DNA from: a virus
Lineage: Monodnaviria > Loebvirae > Hofneiviricota > Faserviricetes > Tubulavirales > Inoviridae
Reading direction: 5' to 3' (one strand)
IMG/VR virus record: IMGVR_UViG_2541047969_000007
DNA: 9,240 nucleotides
Shown: positions 1 to 7,140 of the stretch, one piece after another
Position numbering within the stretch: position 1 is the stretch's first letter
Layout of the letters: each line of letters begins with the position of its first letter
Position numbers and translations under genes: made by a program
The notes under the pieces: model-generated
What the model was told of the DNA's origin: nothing
The model's database searches: none
What the model saw: the letters and a program-made list of their open reading frames with translations, nothing else

Positions 1-95
1 TACATTATGCGCACCAATGGTAAGGATGGCAGAATCTGGCGGGAATCGTTGACACTGGCCGTCAACTGGCTACTATCGACAGTGATTCAAAATCA
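1..95. repeat. Left copy of a 95-bp exact direct repeat; begins with the dif XerC-arm-like sequence TACATTATGCGCACC
   Basis: Identical to 9146..9240 by direct comparison. Nt 5..15 (TTATGCGCACC) is the reverse complement of the E. coli dif XerC arm GGTGCGCATAA (dif recalled from memory). Confidence 0.9.
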
Positions 96-155
96 TCCGT
101 TTCTCCAAACGAATCAGAATCAAATGTCTGTCAGCAGTAAGTGAACGGCCTGACC

Positions 156-404
156 TCACCAATCAGGCCTGTTCATCCAGTTAGTTGGTAAATCTGTACC
201 TGATACACGAGAATCAAACACCACTTCTTCAGTGCCATCACCATGATGCCGGATAATCTGGTAACCGGATTGCGGGTTCTGGCTCTCAGCTTCATAAGCA
301 GCCCGGAATGCTGGATCTTTAAGAAGCATCACTTTCAGCTCCTGATGTGTCATGAATTTTTCCATGATAAGCCCCGATGAATGCTGCCGCGCCGAATCAG
401 CCAT
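156..404 (-). CDS. Hypothetical small acidic protein; likely start at the internal Met (ATG at 363..365, 69 aa)
   Basis: ORF of 82 aa in the same orientation as the phage core genes. The internal start MEKFMTHQ has a weak GGGG Shine-Dalgarno 6 nt upstream. No recognisable domain; the stop codon is embedded in a hairpin (143..174). Confidence 0.3.
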   Translation of the reverse strand: MADSARQHSSGLIMEKFMTHQELKVMLLKDPAFRAAYEAESQNPQSGYQIIRHHGDGTEEVVFDSRVSGTDLPTNWMNRPDW

Positions 405-549
405 AACGCTGAAAATGGAAACTGTACGGCTTGGCCAACCCCGGACAGCAACAAAACAAGTTTTGTCACTGACCGGCGTTATCTTTCAAAACAGACAGTT
501 AACGATTTTTTGTCTGGTGTTTATGCGTGAAATTTCGTGCGTACGAAAT

Positions 550-798
550 TCACCACCAATAAACAAACGGACGATGACTGACCGGAAAAGCAATGCCGTC
601 AGCATCATGACCACGCATTACCTGATTGAGAAGCCTTCTGACTTCACGACGCTCAGGCCTGGTCATCATCATATTGCGATACCAGGACGGCGATTTATCA
701 AACCATCTGGCACAACTGGCAAAATGTGAACCTACACGACGATAAGACTTAAGGCGGCCACCGGGAAGTCGGTCACGCGCCTTATTTTTTACAGACAT
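550..798 (-). CDS. Hypothetical Arg-rich small protein (82 aa); doubtful
   Basis: Good RBS (AGAGGA, 6-nt spacer, ATG). However the Arg-rich N-terminus (KNKARDRLPGGRL) is the antisense reading of a GC-rich plus-strand terminator hairpin (751..790), so the ORF may be a shadow. Confidence 0.25.
   Translation of the reverse strand: MSVKNKARDRLPGGRLKSYRRVGSHFASCARWFDKSPSWYRNMMMTRPERREVRRLLNQVMRGHDADGIAFPVSHRPFVYWW
751..790 (+). terminator. Rho-independent terminator (plus strand)
   Basis: GC-rich stem AAGGCG (751..756) pairing CGCCTT (778..783), with an inner stem ACCGG/CGGT, followed by a T-tract ATTTTTT (784..790). On the minus strand no U-tract follows, so it is plus-strand specific. Confidence 0.55.
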
Positions 799-886: not shown

Positions 887-2131
887 TCAGTTCAGGTTGT
901 CCCGGAACAGTTCACCGCTCCTCGCGGCGCTGCGGGGCGTCGCCCTGCTCCGGTCAACCTTTCTGACCTGAAGCATCACCATAATATCAGTCTTGTTGCT
1001 TTCACTGGTACGGGAACCGAAGAAGCTCCAGCCGGAACTGGCCTTACTGTCTTTCTGTTCAGCAAGGCCACCAAGTAAAATAATATCACCATCTGCAAGG
1101 CTGACTTCGGTTGTTACATCACGCTTGATAAGGGTTGGCGAGTTATTGACGCCGGTTTCAGTGGTCACAAAGTTGGAAAGCTGCTGCTGAATCTTGAGAT
1201 CCATTGTCCGACTTTTGATTGATGGCGTCACGTTAAACAAAACACCGCTGGAACGATATTCAACGGATTGCGTTGTCGTATTGTTATTCACCGTAACACT
1301 GCCCAGTACTGGCACATCAGAGCCGACTGAAAAAGACGCTGAGGCATTATTTTTTACCCGCAGTCGTGGCGCACTGACAACAGTAAAACGACTGTCGGTT
1401 TTCAGCAGATTGAAAATGGCATCAATGGAGCCGGTTCGAATATTGATAAAATTATCCAGTCCGGCAGCACCAACTGAAATATTGAATTTATCAGACAGAA
1501 TTTTAGCCGCTAAAAGAATGCCGGAGCCGTCAGACTGCGAGGTCTGAACCTCAAAAACATAACCAGAAACAACCACTTCATCACTCATCGTATCCAGCGA
1601 AGTGACCAGTGTTTTCAGGATGGCGATATCCTCTTTCGTACCATAATAAACCAGAATATCACCGGTTCGATTGATGTAGTTGCTTGCCCCTGATGAACCT
1701 TTTAGCGAATCGTCAGAAATCACGGCTCCACTGTTATTGAAGGAGCCTGAAACGTAGCCGCCAAGAATATCAGACAGGTAGGCAACAGAACGGTACTGAG
1801 GCGTATAAGTCCATGTATAACGTGGCTTAACCGGCTCTTTCGGCGTATAGGGCGCGATAAAATCAACACCCTTTTTCGTCCATATTCGAATGTTCATATT
1901 GCCAAGATAACGGGTTACAAATTCCCGTTCATCAATATCAGGTGTTAACCTGAATGTAATCATTCGTTCATCATTAACAAGCTGTGGATCTAGCATATAC
2001 GGGACTTTAAGCACCTCACTGTAAATAAGAGAAATAGCCTCCGGTAGCTTGACTTTATTTAATTCAAGCTCTGACCCTGCGAAAGCACATGAAGAAAATA
2101 GTAGCGTTAATGCGAGTAAAATCTTTTTCAT
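887..2131 (-). CDS. Secretin, filamentous-phage pIV-like outer-membrane export channel
   Basis: 414 aa. N-terminal signal peptide MKKILLALTLLFSSCAFA. C-terminal secretin-domain motifs (GSDVPVLGS and VSLADGDIILLGGL). Start overlaps the stop of the upstream Zot/pI gene (ATGA at 2131). Confidence 0.85.
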   Translation of the reverse strand: MKKILLALTLLFSSCAFAGSELELNKVKLPEAISLIYSEVLKVPYMLDPQLVNDERMITFRLTPDIDEREFVTRYLGNMNIRIWTKKGVDFIAPYTPKEPVKPRYTWTYTPQYRSVAYLSDILGGYVSGSFNNSGAVISDDSLKGSSGASNYINRTGDILVYYGTKEDIAILKTLVTSLDTMSDEVVVSGYVFEVQTSQSDGSGILLAAKILSDKFNISVGAAGLDNFINIRTGSIDAIFNLLKTDSRFTVVSAPRLRVKNNASASFSVGSDVPVLGSVTVNNNTTTQSVEYRSSGVLFNVTPSIKSRTMDLKIQQQLSNFVTTETGVNNSPTLIKRDVTTEVSLADGDIILLGGLAEQKDSKASSGWSFFGSRTSESNKTDIMVMLQVRKVDRSRATPRSAARSGELFRDNLN

Positions 2132-3156
2132 TATTTTTTCCCCGTATAAAGCGTCACACGCTCACCATCAATAATTCCGCTCATCAACATCCCTTTGTAA
2201 TTAAAACTGGATGCAGGAACGGCACGCAAAACACCGGCACCATTAACAAGAATCACAAACGCCCTGCCTTCACTGGTCATTCTCCCTGATATACGCCACT
2301 CGGTTGAAAGTGGCGGTTCAGCTGGTTCTGAGGGAGTATCTGGTGCTGGAGTAGCAGCGGAAGAACGAAACATGGCCGCATCACGTACATCTGTTGTAGT
2401 CAAATCTGGCGAGGGATCGCTTCGGCCAAACGTGCTGAAAAATGAGTAAATCAGCCAGCCTGACCCGATAAACATCAATGGAAAAAGCACAAGAAAGAAC
2501 CTGACTTTGCCAGAATTCCAGATGCTCTGGCGTTTATCTGTCTGCTTTTCATTACCGTTATTTCCTTCATAACTTTTGTAAAGTTCAAAAATATCAGGGT
2601 TATATTTATTGCGATAACTGGTGACGAGGTTGCTTTTATAGATTTTGTGGCCTGAATATACGTCAATGCAGTAATGATTATTCAGGCCCAACGCTTTCAG
2701 CTTGCGCATCCGGTAAGTTGTTTCTATTTTGTCTTTCAGAAAGCGAGCAATATTAGAAAGTGACTGATTTACAATAACCAAATCACAGCTAATACCCGTT
2801 TCAGGGTGCGTAAAATGACGATGTTCAGCAATAAATGATTTCTTCTCAGCCGTCATATCCTTATCGCTACCGAAGATTCGCCATGCTTCATCAATAACAA
2901 TTAAATCACCAAACTGGCAAAAGCTCCCTTCCCCACCTTTAAAAGGAAAGAAATCTGCTTTAAGCACATCATCATTATCCACAACAATAATTTCTCCCGT
3001 TGCATCAGGATAACGTTCGGTGATTTTATCTTTTTGTAAACCATAAATGTTCGTCACAACTCTCCGGCCGCTGGTAAATGCCGGAATAATGACATTGCAA
3101 ACGGCTTCATAACTTTTTCCTGAGCCGGGTATGCCAATATATGCAGAAATAGCCAT
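2131..3156 (-). CDS. Zot/pI-like phage assembly ATPase (inner-membrane morphogenesis protein)
   Basis: 341 aa. N-terminal Walker A P-loop GIPGSGKS. Hydrophobic segment (FFLVLFPLMFIGSGWLIYSFF) in the C-terminal third, typical of pI/Zot topology. Sits immediately upstream of the secretin gene. Confidence 0.85.
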   Translation of the reverse strand: MAISAYIGIPGSGKSYEAVCNVIIPAFTSGRRVVTNIYGLQKDKITERYPDATGEIIVVDNDDVLKADFFPFKGGEGSFCQFGDLIVIDEAWRIFGSDKDMTAEKKSFIAEHRHFTHPETGISCDLVIVNQSLSNIARFLKDKIETTYRMRKLKALGLNNHYCIDVYSGHKIYKSNLVTSYRNKYNPDIFELYKSYEGNNGNEKQTDKRQSIWNSGKVRFFLVLFPLMFIGSGWLIYSFFSTFGRSDPSPDLTTTDVRDAAMFRSSAATPAPDTPSEPAEPPLSTEWRISGRMTSEGRAFVILVNGAGVLRAVPASSFNYKGMLMSGIIDGERVTLYTGKK

Positions 3157-3159
3157 AAC

Positions 3160-3447
3160 TCACCCTATAACAGGAATACGTCGAATAATAAAACGAGTAG
3201 CCATTGCGGAGATAATCATACTAATCCCCTGTGGTAATTTACTCAGGTTAATGAAGTACCAGAATCCGTCTGATAAATTGGCAAACAGCGATGAGAGATT
3301 GCTTGAATCTGGCAGTAACTCAACAAGGATTTCAACGAAGCCCTGGACTACAAAATACAGCGCAAAGAATACGACGAATTTAATAATCAATGACCGGAAT
3401 ACAAAACCTAACAAAGTATTTAATGCACTAATCAGAATCCCAAACAT
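3160..3447 (-). CDS. pVI-like minor virion protein (hydrophobic)
   Basis: 95 aa, very hydrophobic. Strong RBS (AAGGAG, 7-nt spacer). Located between the pIII-like and pI-like genes as in Ff and CTXphi (ace position). Confidence 0.5.
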   Translation of the reverse strand: MFGILISALNTLLGFVFRSLIIKFVVFFALYFVVQGFVEILVELLPDSSNLSSLFANLSDGFWYFINLSKLPQGISMIISAMATRFIIRRIPVIG

Positions 3448-3459
3448 AGTTGCACTCCT

Positions 3460-5172
3460 TTAGGCACTCAGAATAATACGGAGCGCAACAAATCCCCATA
3501 TAATCAGAAATATGGTTTCTACGGCGCTTCTGTTCTGCTCAATTAACGGACAATGGGAGTCAATTCTGTACTGGTGATTAAACACGCTGAATTCAACAAC
3601 GGGGCAGGATGCTGAACGAGAGCCGATGTTAAATTCGTTTGTAAAAGGCAACAAGTTAATAATTGGCGTTAAAATATCTCTTGCCGTTGGCGTTTCTTCA
3701 AGCTCAGGCTCTTTTACACCGGGATCTTCTCCCAAATCTATATTGCCATTATTTCCAGTGTCAGATCCTGAGTTGTTATTAATGGTAATATCAATATTGA
3801 CGTCAGCCCCTGCACTGTCAGATACAGGTGAAAGCATATCTAATAACGTTGGAGATAGCCTAAGTTCCGACATCGCAGAAGTTACTTCAGCCGGTGAAAC
3901 CTCTTTAAACGGTAAGCCGTTATAATCGGCATTAACGGCAGCTTCAGACCACAGCTCGTTAATCATGTCGGCAAGAAGTGCTGGCGATACACTAACACTA
4001 TCAAGATACTCCAGATAATCAATCATGGACTCAATATTTCCAGCCTCCAGTACTTCCGTCATGGCTTTATATTTGGTATTGGTCCAGATAGTAAGCTCAC
4101 TCTTTTCATCAATATCTTTTGCGGTGTAATCCTCTTTTTCAGGAACGGCACAAATCGTCGAATATCCACCATTTGACTGATTAGTCGTTTTACAAGGCGT
4201 GTTGTGATACTGATATTGCTTTCCTGCTGTTAAATAAGCAACGCTGTAATACATGGGAAGCCCTGCTACATTTTCATACATGGGAATACCTGCGGGAAAT
4301 GAAGATGCGGCCGGGTTGCTATACAAGTGTGTAATCTCAGGTATTTCATAAAATGAGGAAGGATAAGTAAACTTATAATTCTGTTCAGTAAAGGATACAT
4401 CTCCATTACTGTTGACAACTTTATTCGTCACAGTGCGTTCAAAATTCGTTAGTGTTTCAGTATAAGTACGCGAGTTATAGTCATTAAGATAATTTCTGGC
4501 AATTTCAGTTGGATTATCACCATAGTAATAAATTAGCTCTTTCGAATCCTGATAATAATAAAGTGCATTATCTGGCGTGGAATATCCTGTTTCAACACCT
4601 ACAACTGGAGAACCCGCATCCACATTATTACGACTAACATGAAGGATTACCGGACTTAATTCCTGTGGTTCAAAATTAACGGTTATCGTCTTACTTTCAC
4701 CACTTTGACCACTGTACGTTACTTCATATAAATTATCGGAAATCTTTTTACCGTTAGTCATTACCATTACCGAGCCGTCAGATGAACTCAAAGAAGACGG
4801 AACAAAAGATGATACAGCAGCAGCAATACCCGCCCACGTTGCAACACCGCTCATTTTGTATGATGAGGCAGCAGGCAAGTATTCGGCAGCATTAGCCGCA
4901 GCGCGGCCAACAAAAACACGGGTTGCTGTAAGCTGTGATGCCGTATAAATCGCATCATTGGCAGCAAAGCGACGAACAAGCACCCGGCCAACGACTTTAG
5001 GAATAACAGCCCGCGCAGCCACTGCTGCAATTGCTGGTACAAATGAATATGAATATCGGGGAAAGGAAACCCAGAGAAAGGAAAAAATAAAGGAATAAAC
5101 CGTCAGCCTCTTAGCCCAAGAATAACGACATAAGCTGAGACGATCCCCCATAAAAGGGAACCCAATTTCCAT
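3460..5172 (-). CDS. pIII-like adsorption / minor coat protein; start uncertain
   Basis: 570 aa. Gly/Ser/Asn-rich linker (INNNSGSDTGNNGNIDLGEDPG). C-terminal membrane anchor (IFLIIWGFVALRIILSA). Strong SD GGAGA 7 nt upstream of the ATG at 5172. Position after the major coat gene. Confidence 0.6.
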   Translation of the reverse strand: MEIGFPFMGDRLSLCRYSWAKRLTVYSFIFSFLWVSFPRYSYSFVPAIAAVAARAVIPKVVGRVLVRRFAANDAIYTASQLTATRVFVGRAAANAAEYLPAASSYKMSGVATWAGIAAAVSSFVPSSLSSSDGSVMVMTNGKKISDNLYEVTYSGQSGESKTITVNFEPQELSPVILHVSRNNVDAGSPVVGVETGYSTPDNALYYYQDSKELIYYYGDNPTEIARNYLNDYNSRTYTETLTNFERTVTNKVVNSNGDVSFTEQNYKFTYPSSFYEIPEITHLYSNPAASSFPAGIPMYENVAGLPMYYSVAYLTAGKQYQYHNTPCKTTNQSNGGYSTICAVPEKEDYTAKDIDEKSELTIWTNTKYKAMTEVLEAGNIESMIDYLEYLDSVSVSPALLADMINELWSEAAVNADYNGLPFKEVSPAEVTSAMSELRLSPTLLDMLSPVSDSAGADVNIDITINNNSGSDTGNNGNIDLGEDPGVKEPELEETPTARDILTPIINLLPFTNEFNIGSRSASCPVVEFSVFNHQYRIDSHCPLIEQNRSAVETIFLIIWGFVALRIILSA

Positions 5173-5236: not shown

Positions 5237-5470
5237 TTATGCGGATTTAACGGTACGCAATACCCAGCGAACGCCAGCGACACCGGCATAAAGTGTTACC
5301 AGTGAAGCAGCAACGGCCATAATCGCAACCAGAACTGTACTGAAATCAATGCTGTTCGTCAGCGGCGATAAATCAACACCACTTGATGCCGCTCCTTCTG
5401 CAGCGAAAGTCGCGCCAGAAACAGCCATTAATGCAGGTACAGCCAGAAAACTAACGATTTTTTTAAACAT
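5237..5470 (-). CDS. Major coat protein (pVIII-like) precursor
   Basis: 77 aa. Signal peptide MFKKIVSFLAVPALMAVSGATFA. Mature part has an acidic N-terminus (AEGAASSGVD), a hydrophobic core and a basic C-terminus (RWVLRTVKSA). RBS GGAGA with 7-nt spacer. Confidence 0.75.
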   Translation of the reverse strand: MFKKIVSFLAVPALMAVSGATFAAEGAASSGVDLSPLTNSIDFSTVLVAIMAVAASLVTLYAGVAGVRWVLRTVKSA

Positions 5471-5758: not shown

Positions 5759-6076
5759 TCAGCCTTTTATTTCAGTAATGCCGCCATCTGATGAAATGTT
5801 ATAAGTTACTCCTTCCCTCCCCTCCATTGACCAGACGCGAACATATACAGGTATCTGGACTAACTTACCGATAAAATTATTTGCCTGATTCATTACACCG
5901 GCATTAACAAGAGCCTGAGATACACGAATAATAATCTGGTCTTGCTTAGTGCCGCCAAAACCATCAGGAATCTCTAAGCCAACACCAATTTCATTATAGT
6001 ATCCCTGACCATTGACCTTATTACGCTGGCGAGCACCAAGCATTTTACCTTTTACAAAAAGACCATAATTAGACAT
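5759..6076 (-). CDS. Putative ssDNA-binding protein (gene V-like), assigned by position
   Basis: 105 aa. Immediately downstream of rep with a strong SD (AGGAGAG). Size and location match inovirus gV or rstB-type proteins; no diagnostic motif recognised. Confidence 0.4.
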   Translation of the reverse strand: MSNYGLFVKGKMLGARQRNKVNGQGYYNEIGVGLEIPDGFGGTKQDQIIIRVSQALVNAGVMNQANNFIGKLVQIPVYVRVWSMEGREGVTYNISSDGGITEIKG

Positions 6077-6087
6077 ATCACTCTCCT

Positions 6088-7140
6088 TTAATGCCAGTTA
6101 CTGGCATGTGAAATACGGTTATAATCGAAAATTAAACCTTTCTCATAAACCCATGATGGAATTTTGGCTGGTTTGGCTTCAAGAGTACGAACCAACGGAA
6201 CAACGTTATTAGAATCCGGTGACTCACAATAAAAGTTAATATCTATTCCGAAAGAAAGTAATTCTTTACGGTGTCGGTAGAATGTAGGTTTCGGTAACAT
6301 CTCTTTCATGTTCGCGCCCTGCTTCCACAATAAATATGTAGACTGTATTTTTCTTGGGAGATTAATTATTTTTTCATCAGTTAATATAGTATTTTGATTC
6401 ATTTCTATTCTCCCTACATAGTCAGAGAATAATTTATTGGGCGTCTCAATATTCCAGCTATTACCAAGCGTAAGATTCAAATCAATTAATTCAGTTGTTC
6501 TTAATGTTAATTCAATGCGTAATTTATCTTTTGACCAGTCCAGTAAACCAGCTTTAACGAATTCGTCTGCCATCTGGTGCCCTTTTTTGCCAGATGTATG
6601 CTCATCATATTTTGAATAAAATTTCAGGCTCCAACGACGGGAGTTTTTCCCTAAGTAAACAGTGCCACCTTTACCACAGGCGCGACCGTGGCGAGTTTTA
6701 GCTTTAAATTCTGCGGCATATAACCATGCGCGGACATTTTCTAATGTTGACAATGAATACATGTAATTGATATCGATGCGCGAGATCTTAAATTGCCCTT
6801 CCATGACCTGCCGATAGGATGGTAGATCATGAGGAATATGCAGTAATGCCAATATTCTGGCGTAAGCTGTTAACACCAACCCTTGCAAATCGTCGGAACC
6901 GATAACAGAGTGACCTTGCAAAAACTTTGATGGATTACCGTCAATGTAGAGATGTGTTGCCCGACCTTCACCATCAGATCCAACAGACCTTACTTTCATT
7001 GTGGACTCATGCGAACCGCGAACGGTCAACCGTTTTACTGTTTCCCACTCCACTGCACCGTCAGCATCGACGCTGACGACACTACCAGCCGGTAACGGTC
7101 GGTGTGTGCAAGGCAGGATTCCGGTAAACCAGTCGATCAT
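6088..7140 (-). CDS. Rolling-circle replication initiation protein (pII/RstA-like)
   Basis: 350 aa. First gene of the minus-strand phage operon, divergent from the HTH repressor. Sequence resembles phage replication-initiator proteins, with conserved Tyr/Lys-rich segments (YLGKNSRRWSLKFYSKYDEH, LRIELTLR). Confidence 0.7.
   Translation of the reverse strand: MIDWFTGILPCTHRPLPAGSVVSVDADGAVEWETVKRLTVRGSHESTMKVRSVGSDGEGRATHLYIDGNPSKFLQGHSVIGSDDLQGLVLTAYARILALLHIPHDLPSYRQVMEGQFKISRIDINYMYSLSTLENVRAWLYAAEFKAKTRHGRACGKGGTVYLGKNSRRWSLKFYSKYDEHTSGKKGHQMADEFVKAGLLDWSKDKLRIELTLRTTELIDLNLTLGNSWNIETPNKLFSDYVGRIEMNQNTILTDEKIINLPRKIQSTYLLWKQGANMKEMLPKPTFYRHRKELLSFGIDINFYCESPDSNNVVPLVRTLEAKPAKIPSWVYEKGLIFDYNRISHASNWH

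Follow-up and report, generated by a model that had tools for sequence, protein, structure and literature searches.

The stretch of DNA analysed here, the 9,240-nucleotide window of IMG/VR record IMGVR_UViG_2541047969_000007, contains the 9145-bp unit of an inovirus (filamentous phage) of the CUS-1/YpfPhi type, integrated by XerCD at the dif site of Escherichia coli. After the secretin gene (gene IV) lies a tail with two small cargo open reading frames (ORFs), ORF82 (550..798, minus strand) and ORF65 (156..353, minus). Their stop codons are overlapped by two short hairpins, H2 (527..553, minus) and H1 (143..174, minus), respectively. A longer hairpin at 437..480 (minus) is placed between H1 and H2, and the tail borders the attachment site attP. 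The original prediction regarded H1 and H2 as candidate packaging-signal or minus-strand-origin structures. From the structures, their distribution, covariation and strand bias, we infer a different arrangement, which we prefer but hold only tentatively: H1 and H2 would be optional, the 437-480 hairpin would be the candidate for the main minus-strand origin, and H1 with its flanking non-coding module would be an auxiliary priming signal. The minus strand of the window is probably the packaged viral strand, judging from the gene orientation, which is as in the Ff phages (f1/M13/fd), and from the bias of the 437-480 hairpin towards G.T wobbles.

Structure and stability of H1 and H2

Direct reading of the sequence confirmed both hairpins with the predicted positions, stems of about 11 bp and single bulges. 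H1 is formed by a left arm GAACGGCCTGA (143-153) and a right arm TCAGGCCTGTTC (163-174), giving an 11-bp stem with one bulged base and a 9-nt loop; an outer G-C pair can extend the stem to about 141-176. The loop holds the TGA stop (tca, 156-158) of the ORF first delimited as 156..404. H2 pairs a left arm GTGAAATTTCGT (527-538) with a right arm ACGAAATTCAC (543-553) in an 11-bp stem with one bulge and a 4-nt loop, consisting of a core TTTCGT-NNNN-ACGAAA and an outer stem GTGAA/TTCAC. The stop codon of ORF82 (tca, 550-552) is in the right arm, within the outer stem. The predicted overlap with both stop codons is thus correct, in the loop for H1 and in the arm for H2.

Folded as DNA, H1 has an energy of -11.2 kcal/mol on both strands, with z-scores of -4.5 and -4.8 and 0-1 of 200 shuffles equally stable. 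H2 reaches -8.0 and -8.2 kcal/mol (z -2.8 and -3.0; 1-4 of 200 shuffles). We also ranked stability by a 44-nt sliding fold along the viral strand of the entire 9145-nt unit. The top ranks were the inner hairpin of attP (-15.5), a hairpin after the helix-turn-helix (HTH) repressor gene (-13.3), the 437-480 hairpin (-13.2) and, fourth, H1 (-11.2), whereas H2 ranked 11th with -9.5. The stability of H1 is clearly above chance; that of H2 is not, by energy alone, because several hairpins in coding sequence are at least as stable. In this folding of the viral strand, a check proposed in the original prediction, H1 stands out from the background and H2 does not.

The view that the hairpins are unlikely to be terminators was supported as regards intrinsic terminators. 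There is no U-tract after H1 (tails ACTTACTG and ATCCAGTT) or H2 (tails GCATAAAC and CACCAATA) on either strand, and an intrinsic-terminator scan of both strands gave zero sites at 143-174 or 527-553. H2 lies 334 nt and H1 713 nt past the gene IV stop, each after a small ORF. Neither hairpin contains dif-like arms, and a covariance-model search of the window against Rfam returned only two sub-threshold chance matches, both in the attP region. No sequence like the f1 rolling-circle nick site (GTTCTTT/AATAGTGG) was found at the hairpins; the lone weak match overlapping H2 has 3 mismatches, which is at chance level.

Distribution among relatives

Relatives were collected by a protein-anchored genome scan, from divergent E. 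coli prophages and by two DNA-pattern scans of viral and metagenome contigs. After filtering, about 83 family loci remained, representing about 24 distinct lineages (loci carry our L numbers). The metagenome pattern scan gave many GC-rich chance matches, which were filtered by hairpin presence, and a scan of viral contigs with a 14-mer taken from the H1 loop lacked specificity (120 loci, mostly chance). H1 of L010 was scored present by eye, since its loop duplication hides it from the pattern match.

The 437-480 hairpin is present in all 24 lineages, H1 in about 11 and an intact H2 core in 8. A lack of stem conservation in relatives had been named beforehand as one part of what would speak against the original prediction, and the stems of H1 (about 11/24) and H2 (8/24) are each found in only part of the lineages. 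Downstream of gene IV the tail has a mosaic composition, and the homology breaks coincide with hairpin edges. The sister phage L012 has homologues of Rep, G5P, pVIII, pIII, pVI, pI, pIV, ORF82, ORF65 and the HTH protein (58-93% amino acid (aa) identity), while the 91- and 159-aa ORFs of the window were not found in it. L012 has neither H1 nor H2, and there is no substitute fold at its stop codons. The replicative form NZ_CP140410 has the 437-480 hairpin, with both H1 and H2 absent.

The presence of H1 and H2 is also independent of the type of assembly genes. Window-type assembly modules occur without H1 in L012, L004, L225 and L005, and without H2 in L012, L005 and L010, while L158 and L013 carry H1/H2 with unrelated assembly modules. 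As the occurrence of H1 and of H2 follows neither the replication genes nor the assembly genes, it is unlikely that either is the packaging signal, and this part of the original prediction is not favoured. H1 and H2 appear to be optional accessories of the mosaic tail, neither the packaging signal nor an indispensable origin. The tail is rich in viral-strand hairpins, and the general idea of cis-acting single-stranded DNA (ssDNA) elements after gene IV is very likely right, but there are better candidates than the two named hairpins, which are absent from L012 and NZ_CP140410.

The stop-codon overlaps of H1 and H2 are incidental accidents of the lineage. For H1 this follows because its module is kept when the ORF is convergent, replaced or deleted, and because a 2-nt indel ends ORF65 earlier in many relatives. 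We found no occurrence of the H1 module beyond this prophage context in the plasmids or E. coli genomes searched.

A hairpin common to all lineages

The 44-nt hairpin at 437..480 has a 20-bp stem and a CTTG-type loop, and it folds at -14.2 kcal/mol on the viral strand versus -10.3 kcal/mol on the complementary strand. When 22 distinct variants were aligned, 92% of the cells were paired, compared with at most 53% in slid controls. Five pairs are changed on both sides, and zero shuffles reach the observed covariation score; L011 and L153 form perfect 20-bp stems from differing sequences. Wobble pairs are biased, with 41 G.T cells compared to 2 of A.C. Of 24 variants, 22 are more stable when folded as the viral strand, and the mean energies are -15.3 kcal/mol for this strand versus -12.0 kcal/mol for the other.

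On the 3' side of the hairpin (384..436, minus) the window has GGCCAAGCCG (427-436), about 33 nt and then CGGCGCGGCAG (384-394). The phage loci show the hairpin followed by GTTGGCCAAGCCG and, about 33 nt on, CGGCGCGGCAG, a constancy that is partly by construction because the flank strings served as the search pattern. Plasmid copies of the hairpin (L280-L282, L284 and L286) have another flank, and those of L280, L286 and L284 have a common flank of their own, GG(A/C)CAACGAGCA.

The hairpin occurs with a strong Phage_CRI Rep (window, L148 and L153 types), with a divergent G2P Rep (L151, L158) and with a Rep_trans Rep (L017), and also with unrelated assembly modules. Because it tracks neither Rep, as expected of a plus-strand origin, nor the assembly proteins, as expected of a packaging signal, host machinery is its likeliest reader, which would recognize it whatever the Rep type or assembly genes of the phage. 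The 437-480 hairpin is the best candidate for the main minus-strand (complementary-strand) origin of the family.

Several other readings of this hairpin were considered and rejected. A G4-type signal was rejected as there is no adjacent CTG and a distant CTG is not conserved. An attC-like element, suggested by the AAC...GTT ends, does not fit the non-complementary flanks. Repetitive extragenic palindrome (REP) and IS200-end readings were rejected by eye from sequence and size.

Related hairpins were found on plasmids. In IncFIA/FIB plasmids one is located between traT and traD (L280 4602-4651; L286 4001-4050), and the strand on which it folds well is the complement of the tra mRNA (-15.2 versus -8.8 kcal/mol); from textbook F biology we take this strand to be the transferred single strand. 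In a Yersinia frederiksenii plasmid a related hairpin stands just after the hicB antitoxin gene (L284 4001-4052). The plasmid matches L281 and L282 were rejected as independent evidence, being integrated inovirus remnants.

Small ORFs, cargo exchange and H2

ORF82 encodes a basic protein and is a small cargo ORF of the YPO2280a/YPO2281 type; it matched zero Pfam or NCBIfam families and had only a weak PHROG match, to a family without assigned function. ORF65 belongs to PHROG 6642, also a family without assigned function, so that the Pfam, NCBIfam and PHROGs searches gave no function for either small ORF. Two small attR-adjacent ORFs (YPO2280a and YPO2281) of unknown function have been described (PMC4266046). 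For the ORF that had been delimited as 156..404, the stop is right but the start is not. RefSeq places the start at 353 (MEKF...), and the ATG at 404 falls in a non-coding block (354-404) that is conserved upstream of unrelated ORFs in relatives; 353 is likely the true start.

The cargo between the universal hairpin and attP varies among relatives (L010, L011, L009, L159). Alternatives are ORF65, an 81-aa ORF in reverse orientation, a 77-aa ORF that resembles a zinc ribbon, a longer ORF in Brenneria whose only shared feature is a C-terminal YQIIRH..GTEEV motif, and no ORF at all. The motif CAGGTACAGATTTACCAAC is recurrent at the cargo junctions. ORF65 is replaced by the opposite-strand 81-aa ORF in ETEC-2264 (L010) and ERP001 (L011) and is largely deleted in A20 (L009). 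In many relatives with ORF65 the 2-nt indel places its end just before H1.

The H2 core TTTCGT-NNNN-ACGAAA is found in the window lineage, Brenneria (L004), L225 and L158, the last of which is without ORF82. Most other lineages bearing ORF82 have a different palindrome, ATTTTAGCCGCTAAAAT, directly after the stop codon, and their H2 core is degenerate. Compared with L225 and L004, about 20 nt are deleted in the window lineage, whereby the ATTTTAGCCGCTAAAAT palindrome is lost and the stop codon becomes part of the left arm. After this deletion the right arm changed from GTTTTAC to ATTTCAC, and L008 has the intermediate ATTTTAC. Among 12 variants of H2, 81% of the cells are paired and the GC core is broken in 6. 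There is a single compensated pair (AU in 9 variants, GU in 1 and GC in 2), and the covariation is not significant, with 60 of 500 shuffles reaching the observed score. H2 seems to be a lineage-specific remodelling of a palindromic spacer element for which a conserved role is not demonstrable, and it is at most a local ssDNA or mRNA 3' stem.

One alternative is an RNA-level role, in which H1 and H2 would be 3'-end stem-loops of the ORF65 and ORF82 transcripts, acting as terminators without U-tracts, as Rho end points or in protection against 3' exonucleases. Both hairpins are at ORF 3' ends in the window lineage, a palindrome (H2, ATTTTAGCCGCTAAAAT or both) directly follows the stop in 4 of 5 lineages bearing ORF82, and the wobble pairs of H2 variants are valid in the mRNA sense. 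However, besides the missing U-tracts, L012 has both ORFs yet neither hairpin, and L158 has H2 and the palindrome without ORF82. H1 is present where no same-sense ORF ends at it (ETEC-2264, ERP001 and A20), and the indel in many relatives stops ORF65 ahead of the hairpin. We consider this role unlikely, although it survives better than the other alternatives.

The H1 module next to attP

H1 is the 5' member of a non-coding module of about 160 nt (window 19-177) which borders directly on the XerC arm of attP. Folded as a consensus, 15 distinct module variants give three stem-loops: H1, Hx and Hy. Hx (83..122, minus) has an outer stem TGATTC/GAATCA and an inner stem CGTTT/AAACG and is 97-98% paired. 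Hy (48..66, minus) has a nearly invariant stem GTTGAC(G)/(T)GTCAAC that is 99% paired, with a variable loop (GGCCAGT, GCCCAGT, GCCAAGT, GGACAGT and others).

In H1 itself 98.8% of the cells are paired. Its outer pair changes from GC to AU in Erwinia (L006) and to GU in L158, and an inserted T in the Erwinia hairpin pairs with the bulged A, so that the bulge is repaired. In the ETEC lineage (L248) a 9-nt duplication in the loop does not disturb the stem. Substitutions within H1 comprise four that create G.T pairs and one A.C mismatch. Compensatory substitution, which the original prediction had proposed as a check, is thus seen in H1 as a compensated outer pair and a repaired bulge, but H2 has only its one compensated pair and no significant covariation.

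The module is kept in three settings, with ORF65 convergent (window), with the 81-aa ORF on the opposite strand (ETEC-2264 and ERP001) and with the ORF deleted (A20). It occurs with three replication/assembly sets (the window type, the L013 type and L158), and other sets lack it.

Directly 3' of H1 on the viral strand is the hexamer TTACTG (135..140, minus), in which the T of the first CTG is window position 136. TTACTG is invariant in 15 of 15 variants, while both neighbouring positions vary, and it is a candidate primase start motif. Since H1 is kept despite the loss of its neighbour ORF and is followed by an invariant TTACTG, as at stem-loop I of G4, H1 remains plausible as an optional or auxiliary complementary-strand priming signal. 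The priming role proposed originally may therefore be retained for H1 but not for H2, with its core broken in 6 of 12 variants and no significant covariation. A G4-type signal using the CTG 3' of Hy was rejected, as that CTG is not conserved.

On the plus strand the module carries a sigma-70-like promoter motif, TTGACA-16-TACTAT (49..76, plus), with 10 of 12 consensus matches. Its hexamers and spacing are invariant in the 15 variants, and the -35 hexamer is inside the Hy stem. The motif reads from the attP side into the cargo, facing the 81-aa ORF in ETEC-2264 and ERP001 and running antisense to ORF65 in the window.

This motif would allow a role in double-stranded DNA (dsDNA), with the H1 module as a promoter (49-76, plus) together with a structured leader, a small RNA or an antisense RNA, and with H2 and its neighbouring palindromes as operators for a phage DNA-binding protein. 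The near-consensus, strictly conserved promoter and the same-strand 81-aa ORF it faces in two lineages agree with such a role, and the almost perfect palindromes and very small loops of H2 and ATTTTAGCCGCTAAAAT resemble those of operators. Yet the module is kept in the A20 type with nothing coding downstream of the promoter, and in the L248 lineage two G.T pairs would become C.A mismatches in the plus-strand RNA. In addition, no binding protein was identified, and ORF82 is without a recognised DNA-binding domain. We regard regulation in dsDNA as improbable, somewhat more so than the RNA-level role.

Prophage identity and gene layout

Annotation of the window gave a complete inovirus gene complement on the minus strand: a G2P-family Rep (6088-7140), the G5P single-strand-binding protein (5759-6076), the major coat protein (5237-5470), a pIII-like protein (3460-5172), pVI (3160-3447), Zot/pI (2131-3156) and the secretin pIV (887-2131). 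The plus strand encodes the HTH repressor (7312-7758) and three small ORFs. Plus-strand ORFs of 140, 91 and 159 aa at the attL end (8309-9063) are absent from the Yersinia pestis phage L002, which agrees with the published difference between CUS-1 and YpfPhi at that end.

The window is 100% identical to E. coli chromosomal prophages; its tail is 99.7-100% identical to that of UTI89 and 99.5% identical to that of Y. pestis. In NZ_CP070045 the prophage is a tandem repeat with a unit of 9145 bp, and window 9146-9240 is a copy of 1-95. The left prophage junction is a perfect dif site, with the XerC arm and TGTA at window 1-15, and the junction of the tandem copies is an imperfect dif-like site with an 11-nt central region (L001 5988-6015). 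The attP (9064-9163, minus) is a forked hairpin of the CTX type, in which two inverted dif-like sites flank a perfect 11-bp hairpin (9094-9127); it folds at -31.2 kcal/mol (z -6.9). Its XerC arm GGTGCGCATAA is at 9150-9160 and again at window 5-15. An attP made of an inverted pair of XerC/D sites, as in CTXphi, has been described (PMC4266046).

The attP is contiguous in circular replicative-form records. NZ_CP128883.1 (L283, 9565 bp, circular) is a replicative form of the window phage with another plus-strand cargo end. NZ_CP140410.1 (L289, 7938 bp, circular, from Salmonella) is an inovirus replicative form with the Rep type and attP of the window but a differing assembly module. Both were deposited as untypable plasmids and are actually episomal replicative forms of filamentous phages.

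Directly after the HTH repressor gene (7788-7826, plus) there is a strong hairpin, ACGTGCAGT...ACTGCACGT followed by TCTTTATTGTG, which looks like an ordinary intrinsic terminator. Its tail GTTCTTTATTGTG is loosely similar to the f1 nick sequence GTTCTTTAATAGTGG, on the non-viral strand. Within the repressor gene, a 135-bp fragment (7351-7485) has about 93% identity to conjugative plasmids, several hundred in number, from E. coli, Salmonella and Klebsiella, which accounts for most of the 465 plasmid records matched by the whole-window search. A search of a phage collection for near and distant matches returned zero for the window or for its 380-560 segment.

Comparison with known systems

The tail resembles the Ff phages in its cluster of viral-strand hairpins in non-coding DNA downstream of gene IV, and in promoter-like -35 and -10 elements near H1 whose polarity fits an RNA primer of the complementary strand. 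It differs in having zero sequence similarity and shorter hairpins (32 nt for H1 and 27 nt for H2, versus about 78 nt for Ff hairpin A), in being split by cargo ORFs and ending in attP, and in having elements that are optional among relatives. An Ff-type packaging signal is a long imperfect hairpin of about 78 nt, directly follows gene IV and should be kept wherever the assembly proteins are kept; H1 and H2 show none of these features. In the Ff minus origin two adjacent hairpins mimic the -35 and -10, whereas in the window the -35 is in the Hy stem and the -10 in a predicted single strand.

G4, whose complementary-strand origin is a single-strand initiation signal dependent on primase and SSB, offers a further parallel for H1. 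Both have a stem-loop followed after about 3 nt by CTG-C (CTA-CTG-C in G4, CTC-CTG-C in alpha3 and (CAC)TTA-CTG-C after H1), both have about three stem-loops over about 130 nt, and in G4 the annotated primer start is at the CTG after stem-loop I. Recognition by host enzymes in the G4 style would explain the independence from the phage's own genes. There is zero homology to G4 beyond the short motif; a search of phages for the G4 origin found close G4 relatives only.

Other integrative phages and plasmids give partial parallels. CTXphi attP(+) and the CUS-1/YpfPhi attP belong to the same phage family and genome neighbourhood, and on the viral strand the distance from H1 to the forked attP, which is 3' of it, is about 125 nt, but H1 and H2 are outside attP and without dif-like arms. 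The signal for packaging in Xanthomonas integrative phages is also a short DNA hairpin (20-26 nt) in a Xer-integrating inovirus. However, its DUF3653 binding protein PSB15 is without a detectable counterpart in the window phage, and H1 and H2 do not track the assembly genes. By inspection, its consensus, a stem with GGX(A/-)CCG(C/T)G and a loop with C/T, is not present in H1, H2 or the 437-480 hairpin. The 437-480 relatives on IncF plasmids, on the strand taken to be transferred as ssDNA, recall the single-strand initiation (ssi) signals of conjugative plasmids, but the IncF copies are between traT and traD rather than in the leading region, and they are far shorter than ssDNA promoters of the Frpo type. 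The literature search found no description of these elements, and the motif strings matched unrelated primers only.

These comparisons bear on the proposal closest to the original one, that H1 and/or H2 serve as packaging signal and/or as principal origin of the minus strand, as counterparts of the Ff hairpins A, B and C. The position of both hairpins after gene IV in a hairpin-rich tail, the lack of U-tracts, the unusual stability of H1 and the CTG motif after it, like a G4 start, are consistent with this proposal, and the size of the Xanthomonas signals means that hairpin size is no objection. Against it, both hairpins are absent from L012 and from an episomal form with the window Rep type and attP, there is no correlation with assembly modules, H2 is broken in the core in half of its variants and ranks 11th by energy, and neither hairpin fits the Xanthomonas consensus. 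We judge an Ff equivalence to be quite improbable. Least probable of all is that the hairpins are functionless chance inverted repeats or recombination scars: several coding-region hairpins match the energy of H2, its covariation is not significant and homology breakpoints coincide with hairpin edges, but H1 has a z of about -4.6, 98.8% pairing in 15 variants, a compensated outer pair and a repaired bulge, and the outer stem of H2 was re-paired after deletion through A-T, G.T and G-C.

In the arrangement that we prefer, the H1 module would most likely be an optional complementary-strand initiation signal recognised by a host enzyme. DnaG would start at the CTG after H1, as in G4; alternatively, RNA polymerase may use a promoter mimic, as in Ff. 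M13 remains viable when its minus-strand origin is deleted. Minus-strand origins can therefore be optional, and H1 with its CTG remains a reasonable auxiliary candidate.

A number of points weigh against this arrangement. The G4-type signal family has three stem-loops, all 5' of the CTG (PMC6783573), whereas in the module only H1 is 5' of it, Hx and Hy being 3' and the sequence 5' of H1 being a variable cargo ORF. The folding strand of the H1 module is not established by its substitution events (9 G.T versus 6 A.C), and the module variants are too alike (84% mean column identity) for strong covariation. The -10 hexamer (TACTAT) lies outside any predicted duplex, in a predicted single-stranded stretch, which makes an Ff-type promoter mimic doubtful, and the motif could be an ordinary dsDNA promoter. 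The 437-480 hairpin, in turn, could act in packaging as a generic signal that is recognised by its structure, or it could function as RNA. The orientation on the IncF plasmids is a weak argument, as it represents one homologous insertion with a 50% prior chance of agreement. Finally, many of the relatives are prophages of uncertain viability.

The plasmid copies also raise a wider possibility, which we put forward with considerable doubt. The 437-480 hairpin may represent an undescribed, horizontally mobile family of complementary-strand initiation signals, shared by Xer-dependent enterobacterial inoviruses with unrelated modules and by the transferred strand of IncF plasmids, with H1 and TTACTG as a second, optional G4-like start by attP.

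Implications for integrative filamentous phages

Beyond the Ff and Xanthomonas phages, there is essentially no map of the cis-acting DNA elements of integrative filamentous phages, including the packaging signal and minus-strand origin of CTXphi, of YpfPhi of the plague bacillus and of CUS-1 of E. coli K1/UTI89. A 2023 preprint describes the packaging signals of integrative filamentous phages as having been largely unknown. The present analysis narrows the search in the CUS-1/YpfPhi family, in which neither of the named hairpins is a likely packaging signal, and it provides concrete, testable candidates in the universal viral-strand hairpin and the G4-like hairpin-CTG motif. If the 437-480 hairpin is a priming signal that is read by the host and occurs on conjugative plasmids as well, it would represent a common solution for establishing incoming ssDNA and would be of use as a component in phagemid engineering.

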